From IMG/VR virus record IMGVR_UViG_2778261227_000004: a stretch of 29,708 nt of DNA; one strand, written 5' to 3'. Shown piece after piece: positions 20,311-28,768 of the stretch. The translations under genes were made by a program, and so were the position numbers. Source of the stretch: a virus. Lineage: Duplodnaviria; Heunggongvirae; Uroviricota; Caudoviricetes. Under the pieces are notes generated by a model. That model did not search any database. It was not told the DNA's origin and saw only the letters and a list, made by a program, of their open reading frames with translations. Position 1 is the stretch's first letter. Each line of letters starts with the position of its first letter.

Positions 20311-20463
20311 TTATTCAGATTTGCGCAGTAAAGGGCGGAGCACGACCAGCGCCATCGCCACCAGCACGCCATCGGCAAGCACTGACATCAGGCGTCCGGT
20401 GAAATCCACCGCCACTACCAGAAACAGCAGGATGGCAGCCAGTACAAGACGCGCACTTTTCAC
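20311..20463 (-). CDS. 50-aa hydrophobic membrane protein, coupled to the TerB-like gene
   Basis: GTG at 20463 overlaps the TerB-like TGA (GTGA); VKSARLVLAAILLFLVVAVDFTGRLMSVLADGVLVAMALVVLRPLLRKSE. Below the ORF-track cutoff. Confidence 0.4.
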   Translation of the reverse strand: MKSARLVLAAILLFLVVAVDFTGRLMSVLADGVLVAMALVVLRPLLRKSE

Positions 20464-20885
20464 AGGTACTGCTCCAGCGGTAGCTGAAGCGCCTGAGCAA
20501 TTTTCTTGAGCTGTGCTTCTTCATCCGGACCAATGCCATCCTGGTCAGCGATATCCAGACACAGGCACAGCACATTAACTGCGTCATCAGTACCGGCAAC
20601 ATCAGCCAGCTGGCGAAGGGCTTCAGCATTAGCAGAGCGCGGCGACGCTTCATAACGGGCGCGGATATTTGCACTCATTTGTGCAATCTCGCCGGAGAAC
20701 GGTGCAAAGGCAGGAAGTGCTGCAATGGTTTTCTCCAGTACTGCGATTTCTTTCGCGTCGCAGGTGCCGTCAGCGTATGCAATGGAATACGCACCCCAGA
20801 CGGTCGCCTCCACTGCGTCGCGGTTCTCCATCTTCTTCACTTCGGTAATGGCCTTGCGGGTTTTCTTTTTGAAAATACCAAACAT
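20460..20885 (-). CDS. TerB-like (tellurite-resistance TerB / DjlA N-terminal-like) domain protein, 141 aa
   Basis: ATG 20885 preceded by AAGGAAAAG; paired acidic motifs (...AYADGTCDAKEIAVLE... and ...LDIADQDGIGPDEEAQLKKIA...) typical of TerB-like domains. Confidence 0.55.
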   Translation of the reverse strand: MFGIFKKKTRKAITEVKKMENRDAVEATVWGAYSIAYADGTCDAKEIAVLEKTIAALPAFAPFSGEIAQMSANIRARYEASPRSANAEALRQLADVAGTDDAVNVLCLCLDIADQDGIGPDEEAQLKKIAQALQLPLEQYL

Positions 20886-21454: not shown

Positions 21455-21478
21455 CCGCATGGAGGCGGGTTTAATTGC
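21455..21478. terminator. bidirectional hairpin between the convergent zinc-ribbon gene and the methyltransferase
   Basis: ACCCGC-ATGGAG-GCGGGT stem-loop at 21459-21476 overlapping the methyltransferase stop. Confidence 0.5.
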
Positions 21479-22520
21479 ACATTGCCGAAATTTCACCGAC
21501 TGTCTGCTCAAACCGTTCAGTTTCAAGCTCAACGCCGATTACCCGACGCCCCAGCGCCATCGCCGCTTTTATTGTTGACCCGGATCCCATAAAGAAATCC
21601 GCAACCAAATCACCGGGGCGACTACTGGCCTCAATTATCTGCCGCAACATATCTGCCGGTTTTTCACAGGGATGTTTGCCCGGATAATACTGCACGGGCT
21701 TGTGCGTCCAGACATCCGTATACGGAACGGCAGCCGATACGGAAAAATAACGCCGCAGGGATTTGTACTCCTTCAGCAGGCTGGCATATTGCCGGTTCAG
21801 TTCACTGTATGTGCTGACCAGCTGGTGGTGTGGCTTTTCCAGTTCACCGCGCTGATGTTTTTCTGCTGCAACACGCGCAAACAACGTCTGTAATTTCAGA
21901 TAATCGCCTTCGTTCGGCAACTGCCACTGGCTGATACCAAACCAGTGCGAAGCCATGTTTTTCTTTCCGGTGGCTTCCGCTATCTGTTTTGACGTTATCC
22001 CCAGTGATTCACGCGCATCACGAAAGTAAGAAATCAGCGGGGCCATGACATGCTGTTTTAGCTCGCGCCCCTTTGCCGCATAGCCGTCATTTTTGGGCTG
22101 GTATGGCCCCTGATAATGTTCTGCAAACAGAATGCGTTCTGTTGCCGGGAAATACGCCCGCAGGCTTTCCTTGTTGCATCCGTTCCAGCGTCCGGACGGC
22201 TTCGCCCAGATAATGTGGTTCAGCACATTAAAGCGCTGACGCATCATGATTTCGATATCAGATGCCAGGCGATGACCACAGAACAGGTAGAGACTTCCGG
22301 CAGGTTTCAGTACCCGCCAGAATTGCGCCAGACACTGATCCAGCCATTTCAGGTAATCATCGTCACCCTTCCACTGGTTATCCCAGCCCTCGGGCTTCAC
22401 TTTAAAGTATGGCGGGTCTGTGACTATCAGATCGACAGAGTTTTCCGGTAAGGTCTGGATAAATTCCAGGCAATCAGCGTTGATTAACTCGCAACTGGAT
22501 ATTTTTACAGTATTAGCCAT
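21471..22520 (-). CDS. orphan DNA methyltransferase (N6-adenine/N4-cytosine class, DPPY motif)
   Basis: 349 aa; N-terminal catalytic motif ...VDLIVTDPPYF... and C-terminal AdoMet motif ...DLVADFFMGSGSTIKAA...; no adjacent restriction endonuclease gene. Confidence 0.85.
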   Translation of the reverse strand: MANTVKISSCELINADCLEFIQTLPENSVDLIVTDPPYFKVKPEGWDNQWKGDDDYLKWLDQCLAQFWRVLKPAGSLYLFCGHRLASDIEIMMRQRFNVLNHIIWAKPSGRWNGCNKESLRAYFPATERILFAEHYQGPYQPKNDGYAAKGRELKQHVMAPLISYFRDARESLGITSKQIAEATGKKNMASHWFGISQWQLPNEGDYLKLQTLFARVAAEKHQRGELEKPHHQLVSTYSELNRQYASLLKEYKSLRRYFSVSAAVPYTDVWTHKPVQYYPGKHPCEKPADMLRQIIEASSRPGDLVADFFMGSGSTIKAAMALGRRVIGVELETERFEQTVGEISAMCN

Positions 22521-23061: not shown

Positions 23062-23098
23062 ATGCGCAAAATACACTTTTCAGTTCGGTTTTGCAATA
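23062..23098 (-). promoter_or_regulatory. candidate late promoter pR' (possible qut region)
   Basis: Minus strand TTGCAA, 17 nt, TATTTT at the 3' end of the Q-like gene. Confidence 0.4.
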
Positions 23099-23769
23099 TT
23101 TAACCTGGTATTAGATACCTTTTGTTGTGAACGTAAGTGCATTGCCGATATAAGCGCATCTTTGTCCAGGCCTGTAACACAGTCACGCATAATCTCCCAG
23201 CGAGGTCGGTATGTCTCTGTCCATGTGGATTTAGCAACCCCCATCAATTCAGCCAGTTCCTGATATTCATAAGTCTCACTCCCAGCCAGCTCGCTCTTCA
23301 CATCCTGCGCCGCCAGCCAGATTAATTTTTTCAGGCGTTCCCGTGTTTTCTCCGCAATTTTTCTGGTACCAGATTGCGCGTTAAATTCATTCCACGCCCA
23401 CTGTGTTATCGCAATCTGGTGTTCCCAGCAAATGCTGCCGCTGTAACACCACAGCAACCAGGCTTTATGGTGTTCTTCAAGAGACAGAACTGCCCGTCGC
23501 CATGATGATGTCGAGAACTCAACCTGACTCACCAGAGGAATAGACGTCCCCTTTGCCAGCGATTGTTTCCCCGGGATTGGTGGATTATCCCGCGTGATCA
23601 TTTTTCCGGTCACTTCATCACGGTACCGGATTTTTTTACGCCTGTAACGCCCTGTATCGAACATGGCATTCTCCTGCCAGGCTTCAAGCTGACCTTTTGT
23701 TGCCCCACTCAAATCGGCGGTGGCGATAATGAGCTGCTCACGAACAAACTGTAAATACTGGTTATTCAT
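23080..23769 (-). CDS. putative late-gene antiterminator (Q-like), 229 aa
   Basis: ATG 23769 overlaps the rusA stop (ATGA). Assignment rests on synteny (rusA, then this gene, then promoter and terminator, then late and lysis genes); the sequence is not lambda Q-like by eye. Confidence 0.45.
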   Translation of the reverse strand: MNNQYLQFVREQLIIATADLSGATKGQLEAWQENAMFDTGRYRRKKIRYRDEVTGKMITRDNPPIPGKQSLAKGTSIPLVSQVEFSTSSWRRAVLSLEEHHKAWLLWCYSGSICWEHQIAITQWAWNEFNAQSGTRKIAEKTRERLKKLIWLAAQDVKSELAGSETYEYQELAELMGVAKSTWTETYRPRWEIMRDCVTGLDKDALISAMHLRSQQKVSNTRLNIAKPN

Positions 23770-24121
23770 GCGCACTCCAGCTCTGTGATTTTTATCCCCA
23801 GTCGACCACCAGGAACAGGCAGACCGCGCACAATATTAATTTCATCAAACTGCTCGTCGTCGATAAGCAACCCCGCATGCGTCAGCGCATCCAGCGGTGC
23901 TTTCAGGATATTGTCCAGGTCCCGACGGCGCTTATCCGGCGGCTCTGCAATAATTTTTATTGCCAGCCTTCCGGACTTAATTTCAGTCGCTGCTGGCGAA
24001 CAATAAGTGCCACATCACGGCGATAACGCTCACCGGCTTTTGATACAAAATATGTGCTGCCACGACGTCGCCAGTAGGTGTTCACCGTTGGCGGGTAAGG
24101 CAAAACAAACTCTATACGCAT
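23766..24121 (-). pseudogene. rusA: Holliday junction resolvase RusA, disrupted by a frameshift
   Basis: From ATG 24121 (RBS AAGAGG): MRIEFVLPYPPTVNTYWRRRGSTYFVSKAGERYRRDVALIVRQQRLKLSPEGWQ, then stop. The -1 frame continues ...LAIKIIAEPPDKRRRDLDNILKAPLDALTHAGLLIDDEQFDEINIVRGLPVPGGRLGIKITELECA. Both halves match RusA; the span is 356 nt, not a multiple of three. Confidence 0.65.
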
Positions 24122-24133
24122 CAGTAACCTCTT

Positions 24134-25183
24134 TTACCCGAGCACGCCGGTTGCAAAGGCGTGATCAAGAAAACGAAAAATTAAATCAATCTGGGAACCA
24201 TGCTTTTCTTCGAACGCCAGCGGATCCGCATGAAGCTCGTTGTGATGCTCCCGACACAACGGTAGCGTGAAAATATCGTGGGATTTTGTTCCCATTCCAC
24301 CCTGACCATGACCAATCAGGTGATGGGGATCGTCGGCTGGCTTACCACAACACGCGCACGGCTGTGTCTTTACCCAGCGCGTGTATTTCTCATTCATCCA
24401 GCGGCGACGTTTAGGTCGCCTCATGAAAGATTCAGGAGACTCCGGATCTACGGCAATGCTGACCACCGTCTTTTCCTGTGGTGCGTTCTGTTGCTGGTGG
24501 ACGTGAGGCAACTGCGCAAGATTTTTTGTGCGCTGCTTCAGTATGCTGGTGGCGGTCTGCTCTCCCGGTATGATGTCGCTTTCGCGGTACACCGAGCGGA
24601 TTTTTTCCGCACGTAATCCCAGCGAACGACGCAATACTGTCTCCGGTAGCGCGTCCGCCACCTGATTGCAGACTGCCCACCAGGATAATTCAGCCAGCGA
24701 TAATTCCCGCTCCTGTGTGCCATTCATTGCCTGGCGTATGACGTCAATCATCCATGCTGTCAGGTTTTGGTGAGCAAGTTGCCCGAGTGATTCGGAAGTC
24801 TGGTCACGCAGCTGGTTGTCGCAGTGCCAGCACAACACCATCGCGCCAGCACCGTAACGATGTATGACGGTTTCGCTGTGATGGTAGTCACCATGAGGCC
24901 ACTGGCAGGATTTAACGTGGCGCAATAGCCAGTCAGACAGTGCACCAGCACCGCCAGCAGCGCGAATCACCCGCTCATCGCTGAAAAATGGCAGCAGAGA
25001 TTTGTCTTCCGCCAGCGGCTGGCGAACGGCAGGAACGACTCCGGATGGCAGACCTCGCATGCTTTTTGGTTCCGGCTCCACCAGCACACGCCCCTGCATA
25101 AACAAAGGCATCGCATCAGGACCGGGCCTGAAAAGTACAATCCCCAGACGGTGAGCAATTTCAGGAGTCACTAATACCCGCAC
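24134..25183 (-). CDS. DUF968-like prophage protein
   Basis: GTG 25183 preceded by GGAGGT; C-terminal ...CACCGKPADDPHHLIGHGQGGMGTKSHDIFTLPLCREHHNELH... recalled as DUF968, common beside rusA/Q in lambdoid prophages. Confidence 0.55.
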   Translation of the reverse strand: MRVLVTPEIAHRLGIVLFRPGPDAMPLFMQGRVLVEPEPKSMRGLPSGVVPAVRQPLAEDKSLLPFFSDERVIRAAGGAGALSDWLLRHVKSCQWPHGDYHHSETVIHRYGAGAMVLCWHCDNQLRDQTSESLGQLAHQNLTAWMIDVIRQAMNGTQERELSLAELSWWAVCNQVADALPETVLRRSLGLRAEKIRSVYRESDIIPGEQTATSILKQRTKNLAQLPHVHQQQNAPQEKTVVSIAVDPESPESFMRRPKRRRWMNEKYTRWVKTQPCACCGKPADDPHHLIGHGQGGMGTKSHDIFTLPLCREHHNELHADPLAFEEKHGSQIDLIFRFLDHAFATGVLG

Positions 25184-25529: not shown

Positions 25530-25557
25530 TTGTCGTCAACAGGCAACGTGCTATCAT
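25530..25557 (+). promoter_or_regulatory. candidate sigma70 promoter of the parDE-like operon
   Basis: TTGTCG, 16 nt, TATCAT about 35 nt upstream of the parD-like ATG. Confidence 0.4.
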
Positions 25558-25592
25558 CGAATGGTGTTCTATCCTACTCCGTGAGGTTTACC

Positions 25593-25850
25593 ATGCGTAC
25601 AACCCAACAATTCAGCATTACATTAACTAACGAAATGGCTGACATGGTGCGCGCCCGTGTGGCTTCCGGTGCCTATGCATCAGAAAGCGAGGTCATTCGT
25701 GAAGGACTTCGCGCACTGAATGAGCGCGATAAAGCAATCGAAGCGTGGTTAACGCATTCAGCCGCCCCCTCTCTTGATTCTATCCGCGAAAATCCAAACA
25801 ACGGACGCTCCATTTCACAGGTTCGCGCCGAGATTCGATCCGGGAAGTAA
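25593..25850 (+). CDS. parD: type II antitoxin, ParD-like (ribbon-helix-helix)
   Basis: ATG 25593 preceded by GAGG; MRTTQQFSITLTNEMADMVRARVASGAYASESEVIREGLRALNERDKAIEAWL... typical of ParD/CopG RHH antitoxins; 5 nt upstream of a ParE-like gene. Confidence 0.75.
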   Translation: MRTTQQFSITLTNEMADMVRARVASGAYASESEVIREGLRALNERDKAIEAWLTHSAAPSLDSIRENPNNGRSISQVRAEIRSGK

Positions 25851-25855
25851 TCTGC

Positions 25856-26155
25856 ATGACATATGAAGTCATCATTACTCCTGAGGCCGAACAACAAATA
25901 ATCAACCTGCACAGATATATAACGGAGAAAGCAGGGAACGTCATTGCTGACAATTATGCCAATGCGCTTCTTGATTATCTTGATGGGTTTTCTACATTCC
26001 CGCATCGGGGCAATAAACGCGATGATATTCGCCAGGGGATGCGGGTAACTCATTTCCGCCACAGAACGATTATTGCTTTTGCCGTTGATGGCAGAAAAGT
26101 CTTTATTGTCGGTATCTATCATGGTGGGCAAAGTTATGAAACCGATTTCTTATAA
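25856..26155 (+). CDS. parE: type II toxin, ParE/RelE-family
   Basis: 99 aa; MTYEVIITPEAEQQIINLHRYI...RVTHFRHRTIIAFAVDGRKVFIVGIYHGGQSYE typical of ParE/RelE toxins; small, immediately after the antitoxin. Confidence 0.75.
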   Translation: MTYEVIITPEAEQQIINLHRYITEKAGNVIADNYANALLDYLDGFSTFPHRGNKRDDIRQGMRVTHFRHRTIIAFAVDGRKVFIVGIYHGGQSYETDFL

Positions 26156-26279: not shown

Positions 26280-26363
26280 TTATCCCCAGCGGCAAATCGA
26301 ATACACCACCAACGCCACCGCCAGTGCGATTCCTACCGTTGTGAATGCTTCAGGCCAGGTCAT
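26280..26363 (-). CDS. 27-aa hydrophobic peptide, coupled to the upstream 114-aa gene
   Basis: ATG 26363 overlaps the upstream TGA (ATGA) with GGAGGA 10 nt upstream; [27 protein letters not shown]. Below the ORF-track cutoff. Confidence 0.35.
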
Positions 26364-26704
26364 CGTAAAACATCCTCCACGCTTATCAATCCGTTCCGCT
26401 CCAGATAACTCATCGCCTTATCCGGTAATTTGCAGTCTGGCTTCGCTTTCCTCAGTTGCCAGGCTAACTGCTTTACCTGCATAGTTAACTCGTCGACCAG
26501 ACGCTGATACCCCACTGGTTTGTATTCATGCAATTTACCGGCTGGCTCTGCTGCCAGCGATACCAGTGCGATTTCCAGAACAGCAATATCCATCTTATAT
26601 GTGCGGATGATGTCATTGTCGATTGTGCCCGGTATGCACAATCTCTGTGCTTCAATAGTCTCCTCTGCGTGAGCTATTAACTGCTCTCTGGTAAAAGTCG
26701 TCAT
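26360..26704 (-). CDS. hypothetical 114-aa protein
   Basis: ATG 26704 overlaps the HNH stop (ATGA); family not recognised. Confidence 0.5.
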
Positions 26705-27066
26705 GCCGTAGCCCCTTCTTGATATTTTTCAAACCAGAACACAACTGGGTCAGATTTCATTTCAACCAATCCCATACGAACCAGCGCCTTGCCTTTCCCG
26801 GACGCAAGGAATTCACGACGACCATCACTGATAATTCGCCGATAATCTTCCAGGCTACTGCAATGCTTGTGCAGATTGCATGGGTGGCATGCCGGAACCA
26901 TGTTGGATATATCGTCACGTTCCTGGTGAAGCATATTTCCATCAAAACGGATGACCGGTTTTACATGGTCTGCATGCCACTTTTCGCCAAGTTCGCAGCC
27001 GCAATAAGCGCAGCGACCACCGAACTTCATGCGCAGTTCTGCACGTTGTTTTTTCGTCAGTGACAT
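26701..27066 (-). CDS. HNH endonuclease (121 aa)
   Basis: C-x2-C ... HADH ... N-x4-C-x2-CN pattern: ...[23 protein letters not shown]...[13 protein letters not shown]... Confidence 0.75.
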
Positions 27067-27067
27067 A

Positions 27068-27286
27068 TCAGCTTTCCTTATACGGATTAATTTTATTGTG
27101 TAGTGTGTTGAATGGTCCCCATATCACATCGGTATATAACTCAATAATAGGTTCAATTATTTTCACGATTATCCAGACAAAAATTAGCGGGGATATCGGT
27201 ATCATCAACACGATAAACAGAATGAGAAACAAAAATTCTGTCGCTCTACTTTTTCGCGGATATTCTTTTCTGAATAATGTAGTCAT
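27068..27286 (-). CDS. 72-aa single-pass membrane protein (AT-rich cassette)
   Basis: ...FLFLILFIVLMIPISPLIFVWIIVKII...; local GC about 33 percent; stop is 1 nt from the HNH start. Confidence 0.45.
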   Translation of the reverse strand: MTTLFRKEYPRKSRATEFLFLILFIVLMIPISPLIFVWIIVKIIEPIIELYTDVIWGPFNTLHNKINPYKES

Positions 27287-27318
27287 TTCTTACCGCCCTT
27301 TCGGGCGGCCTCCTGACA

Positions 27319-27531
27319 TTAATCGTTGTGATAACTCATAGCTTCATTTGCAGCATCAACTGGATCAACATCCCACCAGCAATAATTTGGTTCGACTCCT
27401 TCAGGTGTCCACGGCTCTAATTCATTTTTTGCCGCATTCTCGTCGCCAGTAATTTTAAAAATCTGCTCAGAAAATTTCCTCACCCACTCGTTATATTTTT
27501 CCGCATTAATGGTTTTCTGTGTATTTAACAT
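27319..27531 (-). CDS. hypothetical 70-aa protein (AT-rich cassette)
   Basis: ATG 27531 preceded by GGAGGT; AT-rich promoter-like sequence upstream (27532-27581). Confidence 0.45.
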   Translation of the reverse strand: MLNTQKTINAEKYNEWVRKFSEQIFKITGDENAAKNELEPWTPEGVEPNYCWWDVDPVDAANEAMSYHND

Positions 27532-27581
27532 AGATATACCTCCAGTTAAGGATTTGATTTTATTTACAGTGCTAAATTTAT

Positions 27582-27938
27582 TTATTCAGTTCTGGATTTC
27601 GTCGCCCTGCGTATCCGCGCTTTCGCGTTACGCTCAATCTGAATTAACTTTTCTATATTTTTCCGTCTTTCCTGTTCCTCCTGGCGCAATAGCCTTACAT
27701 CATCTGCCAGTCTGGTTTCTCTTTTCGCCACAGAGAGCATCCAGTCAAACGGCTCCACAACTGCACCGCAGATTTTACAGCGGACCTGACGCTCTTTTTC
27801 GTCAACCCGGACAGAAGCGTGATGACAATATGGTCTTTCCGATGGCTCATAAAGAAAATTAACCTGATTACGTGGGTCATCCTCTTTTACCGGAAATAAA
27901 ACAATATTACTTAACTCATCTTCTGGTTTGATTTCCAT
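27582..27938 (-). CDS. hypothetical zinc-binding protein (about 118 aa; C-HH...C-x2-C) with basic coiled-coil tail
   Basis: Start placed at ATG 27938 preceded by AAGGAGAGG; ...PYCHHASV...VRCKICGAV... Confidence 0.45.
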   Translation of the reverse strand: MEIKPEDELSNIVLFPVKEDDPRNQVNFLYEPSERPYCHHASVRVDEKERQVRCKICGAVVEPFDWMLSVAKRETRLADDVRLLRQEEQERRKNIEKLIQIERNAKARIRRATKSRTE

Positions 27939-28476
27939 GCTCCTCTCCTTTGATGCGAATGCCAGCGGCGCGTGGCACATTAGCTTCCACGATGCGCACA
28001 GTTGGTTTGTACATCTCAATCGCTGCCAGCCAGTCAGCTCCTGTCATGCGCTTTTCTGCATCGCCATTAGTCCACTGAACCGGTACACCAATAGCCTTCA
28101 TCGCAATTTCTATTTCCCCGGCAATGGCGCTTTTTCCGCAACCAGTAAAACCAGATACAACGACAAGAACTTCGCCCTTGGCCGGTTTTATTTCCCGCGC
28201 TTCCAGCTCTTTAACGCGCTCCTCGAGTTCGTAGACTCTGCATTGTTCTTTATCATCAATCAGATATAACCCAAGACATTCGCTTTCTACCCAGCCACCG
28301 AAATCATGATCGTAACGCTCACATGAAAACTCACCGTCGCTGTCCTTTGTTGGGATGGTGTAGCTATCTAATGGGCCACCATACGTCGGCACATTTCCCA
28401 ATGTCGGATGCTCAATCCACATGAAAAATGCACGTCCGGTTATTGGGCAAATATCTGGTCGCCATTGGTTACTCAC
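27916..28476 (-). CDS. P-loop NTPase-like protein with Walker A in the C-terminal half
   Basis: GTG 28476 preceded by AGGAGG (alternative ATG at 28503 or 28422); ...GEVLVVVSGFTGCGKSAIAGE... matches G-x4-GK[ST]; only about 65 residues follow. Confidence 0.5.
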   Translation of the reverse strand: MSNQWRPDICPITGRAFFMWIEHPTLGNVPTYGGPLDSYTIPTKDSDGEFSCERYDHDFGGWVESECLGLYLIDDKEQCRVYELEERVKELEAREIKPAKGEVLVVVSGFTGCGKSAIAGEIEIAMKAIGVPVQWTNGDAEKRMTGADWLAAIEMYKPTVRIVEANVPRAAGIRIKGEEHGNQTRR

Positions 28477-28768
28477 TGGTTGCCTCCTGGAAAATAACTG
28501 CATGCCCCAGCTTCTCCGCCAGTGCCAGTTCCGCCTTAGCGCCTGCTGACCGCTGCCAGCCTTTCAGCATGTAAATCGCATCCACACAACGAATCATTGC
28601 CATGCAAATATCCATGTAGTGTGGCTGTGTCAGCCCGTCCGGAAGTACTGCCGGGTTTAAGACGGTATGCCCTTCCCGTTTCAGTTCCTCTTCCACCTTG
28701 TCGAACGCCTCACGGTTGAAATTTTTATACCCGGTCATTGGACCAGCGATATAAACCCTCACCCTCAC
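28469..28768 (-). CDS. DUF4406-like (nucleoside 2-deoxyribosyltransferase-like) protein
   Basis: GTG 28768 preceded by AGGAGG, overlapping the upstream stop; MRVRVYIAGPMTGYKNFNREAFDKVEEELKREGHTVLNPA... recalled as the DUF4406 signature. Confidence 0.55.
   Translation of the reverse strand: MRVRVYIAGPMTGYKNFNREAFDKVEEELKREGHTVLNPAVLPDGLTQPHYMDICMAMIRCVDAIYMLKGWQRSAGAKAELALAEKLGHAVIFQEATSE

Follow-up and report, generated by a model that had tools for sequence, protein, structure and literature searches.

The stretch of DNA analysed here, 29,708 nucleotides long and referred to below as the window (IMG/VR record IMGVR_UViG_2778261227_000004, Caudoviricetes), is a lambdoid prophage with genes mostly on the minus strand, and its positions 27068-27600 form an AT-rich patch that encodes a 70-amino-acid (aa) soluble protein and a 72-aa membrane protein of the DUF4014 family. 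This patch probably consists of two separate single-gene modules from the accessory pool of "ea/nin-type" genes, exchanged at conserved intergenic linkers. An earlier note, made from the sequence alone, had described it as one foreign two-gene insert with its own promoter-like region, possibly coding for an exclusion or abortive-infection (Abi) toxin. The elements of the patch on which the argument turns are the following:

27068..27286, minus strand: 72-aa single-pass membrane protein, DUF4014 (PF13198, E 1.8e-27; PHROG 1832, phrog_1832 E 1.8e-43)
27287..27318, minus strand: GC-rich linker (62.5% GC), with AGGAGG at 27314..27309, a hairpin at 27308..27293, then 6 nt and the DUF4014 ATG
27319..27531, minus strand: 70-aa acidic soluble helical protein, PHROG 4659 (phrog_4659 E 7.9e-51)
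27532..27581, minus strand: AT-rich intergenic linker (26% GC), with GGAGG at 27543..27539, 7 nt before the ATG of the 70-aa gene

Composition and coding content of the patch

When recalculated, the GC content across 27068-27600 is 36.6%, which ranks lowest among the 533-bp stretches of the window: the minimum, 36.4%, begins at 27059, the mean over such stretches is 52.0% with a standard deviation of 4.0%, and 0.07% of positions are equally low. The sharp drop that had been described is thus reproduced, but its value of about 33% is not, 33.8% being the GC content of the 72-aa gene alone. The patch is in fact uneven in composition, with the 70-aa gene at 38.5%, the 50-bp spacer upstream of it at 26% and the 32-bp spacer between the two genes at 62.5%. 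The GC content of third codon positions is 0.35 and 0.38 in the two small genes, as compared with 0.45-0.62 in their neighbours, and since it is low in both of them, the dip is more than a by-product of amino-acid content or of a hydrophobic protein. An AT-rich patch of this sort is how shuffled accessory modules usually stand out in composition. The earlier term "foreign insertion" is therefore apt in so far as the composition is deviant and the DNA is horizontally exchanged phage DNA, in the general sense of mosaicism, but not in so far as it implies a single two-gene insert. As the dip is reproducible and homologues of both proteins exist, the observation itself stands.

Both open reading frames (ORFs) are real genes on the minus strand, as is evident from their many homologues and from the ratios of non-synonymous to synonymous substitution rates (dN/dS), which are 0.18 for the 70-aa gene (against 26 distinct full-length alleles) and 0.27 for DUF4014 (against 47), values that indicate purifying selection. 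The 70-aa protein is hydrophilic, with an isoelectric point of 4.4, and it aligns end to end with PHROG 4659 (its residues 1-70 on all 70 model positions), showing no difference from this very narrow, uncharacterised family of lambdoid E. coli and Shigella prophages; Pfam holds no family for it, and it is annotated as hypothetical in RefSeq genomes and as gp16 of phage ArgO145. It has 120 close homologues, those named coming from Escherichia, Shigella and E. albertii, and an exhaustive HMMER search of 1.8 billion representatives yielded just two distant full-length relatives, which have the motif DPVDAAN..S.Y in common with it. Two high-scoring HMMER matches were rejected as artefacts of long repeat proteins. 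The AlphaFold2 (AF2) model of the protein is helical (pLDDT 79, pTM 0.67), and Foldseek gave no meaningful match for it in PDB or BFVD (best E 4.7 and 0.7, respectively), just as profile searches of both small proteins against PDB sequences gave nothing significant. As a hypothesis, the 70-aa protein may bind a protein partner in the cytoplasm.

The 72-aa protein clearly belongs to DUF4014, with a PF13198 score of 96 bits against a gathering cut-off of 23.2 and residues 1-71 on model positions 1-71 of 72; apart from DUF4014, no Pfam family matches it at E <= 0.1. There are more than 100 close homologues, those named coming from Escherichia, Shigella, E. albertii and Salmonella, and the allele in the window recurs with 100% identity in IMG/VR contigs and in a RefSeq genome. 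Family members such as L0067 of phage 933W, gp46 of epsilon15 and gp39 of ES18 have in common the length of 72 aa, the hydrophobic helix and the invariant C-terminus, so that nothing substantial distinguishes the protein described here, and elsewhere, too, they are encoded in the early accessory region beside Ead/Ea22-like and HNH genes. The N-terminus is basic (+3 over residues 1-17) and is followed by a hydrophobic stretch with conserved prolines at about residues 18-44, where the 19-residue Kyte-Doolittle maximum reaches 2.96 (residues 19-37). AF2 predicts one long helix over residues 14-66 with a kink at 29-30 (pLDDT 84). Hydropathy, N-terminal charge and the modelled helix together support the earlier view of a soluble protein paired with a single-pass membrane protein. 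In an alignment of 20 members, the C-terminal helix contains the invariant residues E45, E49, Y51, D53, W56 and F59 and ends in LHNKINPYKE; by the positive-inside rule, this C-terminal tail would face the periplasm, with the N-terminus inside. It may be hypothesised that DUF4014 acts from the inner membrane, through its invariant C-terminal helix, on an envelope protein of the host or of a phage, and that it and the 70-aa protein work independently of one another.

Two further observations touch the DUF4014 gene. An antisense ORF on the plus strand (27060-27341) was rejected as a gene, since it lies opposite the conserved DUF4014 frame. Record PP818812.1, named Actinobacillus phage vB_Apl-pPE4, carries a DUF4014 gene with 89% DNA identity to the E. 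coli allele, an unexpected finding for a phage of Pasteurellaceae; the record may be contaminated or mislabelled.

Gene borders, linkers and transcription

The distribution of the two genes contradicts the idea of one insert. Of 5426 complete E. coli genomes, 638 contain the 70-aa gene and at least 1010 contain DUF4014 at megablast sensitivity (about one in five), while in 484 the two genes lie side by side. Where megablast aligns the window with other phages, the similarity ends at gene borders: Shiga-toxin (Stx) phages of the 933W type match 27061-27282 only, which corresponds to DUF4014, Ro157c2YLVW matches 27286-27967, comprising the 70-aa gene and the 118-aa gene that precedes it, and other phages match 27532-27968 alone. 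Phage 933W and more than 100 Stx phages have DUF4014 without the 70-aa gene, and in ArgO145 the two are separated by three genes (about 1.1 kb). Neighbours in IMG/VR were sampled from the 80 best hits, a sample biased towards close relatives of the window; in it, DUF4014 comes next after the 70-aa gene in 46 of 67 loci, the other 21 having different genes there, mostly Ead-like ones; the gene next after DUF4014 is an 87-aa gene in 46 loci, an HNH gene in 17 and an Ead-like gene in 11. Adjacency of the pair is thus frequent, not obligate.

The point at which the two genes meet is occupied by the GC-rich linker, which reads AGGAGG-CCGCCC-GAAA-GGGCGG-TAAGAA-ATG on the minus strand and folds with -20.6 kcal/mol (z = -4.0 against shuffled sequences). 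The exact cassette occurs in at least 120 IMG/VR contigs, where it precedes at least five unrelated genes, encoding a 60-aa MRKFKIII protein, DUF4014, an Ead/Ea22-like protein, a 131-aa MQEIKEN protein and a 66-aa protein, with a gap of 6-9 nt from hairpin to start codon. In loci fetched by protein similarity and not by the motif, GGAGG stands directly 5' of the hairpin in 29 of 34 distinct contexts. ArgO145 carries the 26-bp linker (corresponding to 27291-27316 of the window) twice, at both ends of a 1047-bp segment that holds its three additional genes; the copies are located at L001 3692-3717 and 4764-4789, and alignment of the window with the ArgO145 locus by BLAST gives two pieces that overlap at 27291-27316. 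The arrangement in the window is the product that would be expected of recombination between these two copies. Conserved boundary linkers are an established concept as sites of recombination in lambdoid phages, and the linker is read here as one such conserved gene-boundary joint.

The same linker may have a second role, as its geometry fits a hairpin-bridged ribosome-binding site. In split ribosome-binding sites of the T4 gene 38 type, a hairpin draws the Shine-Dalgarno (SD) sequence near the AUG. Here too there is an AGGAGG, a stable 6-7-bp GNRA hairpin and 6-9 nt to the start codon, and once the 16-nt hairpin folds, the spacing from SD to ATG is optimal; unlike that type, the linker would double as a recurrent recombination joint. 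The hairpin hardly varies and so offers no covariation, and no natural variants with compensatory changes were found. Its interpretation as an intrinsic terminator was rejected, as there is no T-run on either strand. A search of the whole window against Rfam, together with a sensitive search of 26900-27800, revealed no RNA family.

The second linker, the AT-rich spacer upstream of the 70-aa gene, is kept regardless of which gene lies upstream of it. It bears GGAGG and reads as a linker carrying a ribosome-binding site and not as a promoter. The promoter-like region proposed earlier could not be confirmed, as a consensus scan found no sigma-70-like site on the minus strand of 27532-27600; no terminator-like site was found across 26300-28600. 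The spacer contains AAATTTAGCACTGTAAATAAAATCAAATCCTTAACTGGAGG, and in other loci (compare L001 3717-3790, minus strand) a related sequence and, after it, a second small hairpin, GGAGGGATTTCTGCACCCTC, precede the GNRA hairpin linker. These shared spacer and hairpin sequences point to a family of shared intergenic linkers.

Both small genes sit in the P-to-Q ("nin") segment of the early right operon. The local order on the minus strand is 118-aa zinc-ribbon protein, 70-aa protein, DUF4014, HNH endonuclease and Ead/Ea22-like protein, each gene of the block being preceded by its own SD sequence, as read from the sequence. The packing is tight: the 70-aa gene is preceded by a gap of 50 nt, DUF4014 by one of 32 nt and the HNH gene by one of 1 nt, and the HNH and Ead-like genes overlap by 4 nt. 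The ribosome-binding site of the HNH gene, AAGGA, falls within the final DUF4014 codons, and the single nucleotide between the DUF4014 stop and the HNH ATG bears out the earlier proposal that the patch feeds into an operon with the HNH gene. The same block of four genes (118 aa, 70 aa, DUF4014, HNH) is present with 99.9% identity in E. coli CFSAN064035, where it is part of the early left (pL) operon and is flanked by the anti-RecBCD gene and xis/int. Transcription of the exo-xis region is known to be driven by pL (PMC7093339).

Taken together, these data suggest the following course of events. The two modules would be exchanged by recombination among lambdoid phages of E. coli, Shigella and Salmonella, and their adjacency in the window would have come about by recombination between two 26-bp copies of the "AGGAGG + GNRA hairpin", the three ArgO145 genes having been either removed or never acquired. 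Transcription would occur by read-through from an early promoter, namely pR in the window and pL where the block adjoins xis/int, and since read-through from an early promoter entails expression early in lytic growth, both genes would be made at that stage and not from a private promoter.

Several points weigh against this interpretation. In 61 of the 80 best DUF4014 loci, and in 484 of the 638 genomes that have the 70-aa gene, the two genes are neighbours, and such frequent adjacency leaves room for a functional link between them, even if adjacency within blocks more than 90% identical in DNA is explained equally well by shared recent descent. In addition, the promoter scan was a simple consensus test and as such is blind to weak, activator-dependent or non-sigma-70 promoters in a spacer of 26% GC. 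Finally, the orientation of DUF4014, and any target it may have, are deduced from charge distribution and conservation.

Alternative explanations and the names given to DUF4014

An alternative that concerns DUF4014 alone is that it may be a small inner-membrane protein for superinfection exclusion or the blocking of DNA injection, like T4 Imm or HK97 gp15, made early and with the 70-aa gene unrelated to it. This is unlikely, even though the protein is small and single-pass, its C-terminal segment is the most conserved and probably periplasmic, and it is widespread in temperate enterobacterial phages. Scans of Pfam, PHROG and NCBIfam gave only DUF4014/phrog_1832 and phrog_8930 and no membrane superinfection-exclusion family, so that a sequence-family link to exclusion proteins is missing at E <= 0.1 in Pfam. 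Moreover, the position in the operon predicts little expression in a repressed lysogen, which is where exclusion helps most.

Less can be said for the original idea of a self-contained two-gene cassette with its own promoter, carried as prophage cargo and encoding a soluble-plus-membrane exclusion or Abi toxin, which appears improbable. The distinct composition, the combination of a small soluble with a small membrane protein, their adjacency in hundreds of E. coli genomes and the nearby ParDE pair and other accessory genes, which indicate that the region gathers accessory functions, all speak in its favour. On the other hand, promoter and terminator consensus sequences are lacking, the genes are apart in many phages, they are joined at a recurrent recombination linker, and they lie in the middle of an early lytic operon and not in a position expressed in the lysogen. 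Neither protein matches a PADLOC model at E <= 0.1, Pfam and NCBIfam contain no toxin/antitoxin, defence or exclusion family for either of them, and the pair does not show the obligate co-occurrence expected of toxin-antitoxin or Abi systems. The remote homology search that the earlier note had proposed was run, and it links neither protein to a toxin, Abi or exclusion family. Without a PADLOC, family or fold match, the toxin pair is left unsupported.

A further, very unlikely alternative derives from the names under which DUF4014 has been recorded. Some NCBI records and phage MG40 label it "sugar/O-polysaccharide acetyltransferase inhibitor", and the label of the PHROG family is "released from the phage upon host infection"; literature searches on DUF4014 and on both labels found no paper behind either name. 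According to the first of these labels, DUF4014 would inhibit an O-antigen acetyltransferase of the host, in the manner of the small membrane proteins of seroconverting phages. Phage epsilon15 has indeed been proposed to block O-acetylation via small proteins (PMC9558356), and small phage proteins that alter the O-antigen or the envelope exist, namely the Gnarl proteins (PMC12373910), although neither of the two proteins is present in the accessible part of the supplementary files of that accessory-gene screen. The "transacetylase repressor" gp28 of epsilon15 (60 aa; L285 14345-14527) has the N-terminal stretch PRKS..E.LFLI in common with DUF4014 and may be the origin of the name. However, the similarity extends over 30 residues, N-terminal and mostly transmembrane, with 37% identity, a pairwise E of 0.001 and an hhalign probability of 29%; the DUF4014 C-terminus is absent from gp28, which PF13198 does not recognise, and epsilon15 encodes a true DUF4014 protein, gp46, which is annotated as hypothetical and encoded apart from the conversion genes. 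Given this short, partial similarity and the separate gp46, the name is unsupported. The presence of DUF4014 in hosts of many serotypes likewise argues against this function.

The last alternative, that the two ORFs are chance frames in AT-rich non-coding or decayed DNA, has next to nothing to recommend it beyond their shortness and the lack of a Pfam family for one of them. It is refuted by the pattern of conservation, and against it stand strong family matches, full-length conservation in hundreds of genomes, dN/dS values well below 1, proper SD sequences and confident helical models.

Returning to the two exchanged modules, two rather speculative readings can be added. In the first, DUF4014, which ranks among the commonest uncharacterised small membrane proteins in temperate phages of enterobacteria, may be an early modulator that inhibits a host protein of the inner membrane or periplasm, such as an enzyme of envelope biogenesis or a DNA-entry factor, by means of its invariant C-terminal helix. 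In the second, the linker may serve as a portable, hairpin-bridged ribosome-binding site as well as a recombination joint.

Neighbouring genes and comparison with known accessory systems

The genes on either side of the patch, which complete the block, are as follows:

27582..27938, minus strand: 118-aa zinc-ribbon/coiled-coil protein, PHROG 1621 (phrog_1621 E 3e-56, residues 28-144 of a 145-aa ORF)
26701..27066, minus strand: 121-aa HNH endonuclease (PF01844 E 2.2e-6; phrog_2118 E 7.3e-57)

In the case of the zinc-ribbon gene, the mechanically defined ORF reaches 28019, further upstream than the ATG at 27938 where both the family match and the RefSeq annotation begin; a 357-bp coding sequence is annotated for it in the 99.9%-identical genome, and the protein has a weak Zn_Ribbon_TF match. 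This gene precedes the 70-aa gene in 64 of 79 IMG/VR loci, a tighter linkage than that of the 70-aa gene with DUF4014. The order upstream of the block is a P-like loader, a Ren-like DUF977 protein, DUF4406 and a 195-aa ORF. The latter (27916-28503, minus strand) shows weak P-loop-like matches (AAA_16 and APS kinase, E ~0.05) and matches to PHROG 11761/250, and its 3' end overlaps the mechanical 145-aa ORF (27582..28019), the overlap with the zinc-ribbon frame as annotated from ATG 27938 being about 23 nt. Downstream, a ParD-like antitoxin and a ParE-like toxin are encoded at 25530-26155 on the plus strand, opposite to the block but still within the P-to-Q segment, and the same pair is annotated at the equivalent site of phage ArgO145. 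Next come DUF968, the antiterminator Q and a DNA methylase, and after these the holin, endolysin, terminase and structural genes. Further accessory genes on the minus strand are DUF968/HNHc (24134-25183), just upstream of Q (23080-23775), and, between Q and holin, a DNA N6/N4 methylase (21471-22520) and a TerB-like ORF (20460-20885).

Two known kinds of accessory element invite comparison. The accessory genes of the exo-xis and nin regions of lambdoid phages, such as lambda ea8.5, ea22, orf60a, orf61 and orf63, are small, look dispensable and are packed into the early operons; they are exchanged one gene at a time, and their transcription starts from pL or pR (PMC7093339). The block described here would be alike in these respects. 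Nevertheless, the characterised lambda genes have no sequence relation to the present ones, and the block lies on the pR side, from P to Q, and not from exo to xis. The other element is the moron as defined by Juhala and Hendrix, an extra gene with deviant composition and with its own promoter and terminator. The deviant composition is found here, whereas a consensus scan shows neither promoter nor terminator, and the genes form part of an operon and are coupled in translation to the gene that follows; a classical moron was accordingly rejected.

Both genes are already catalogued and are very common in lambdoid prophages, Shiga-toxin phage 933W included. The finding is thus an ordinary one, with two by-products of mild interest, the recurrent SD-hairpin linker and the lack of support for the names given to DUF4014. 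Since the labels "acetyltransferase inhibitor" and "released from the phage upon host infection" cannot be traced to evidence, they should not be propagated. Being present in about a fifth of complete E. coli genomes and strongly conserved at its C-terminus, DUF4014 is instead a sensible candidate for accessory-gene screens of the kind that lately gave functions to other small phage proteins.

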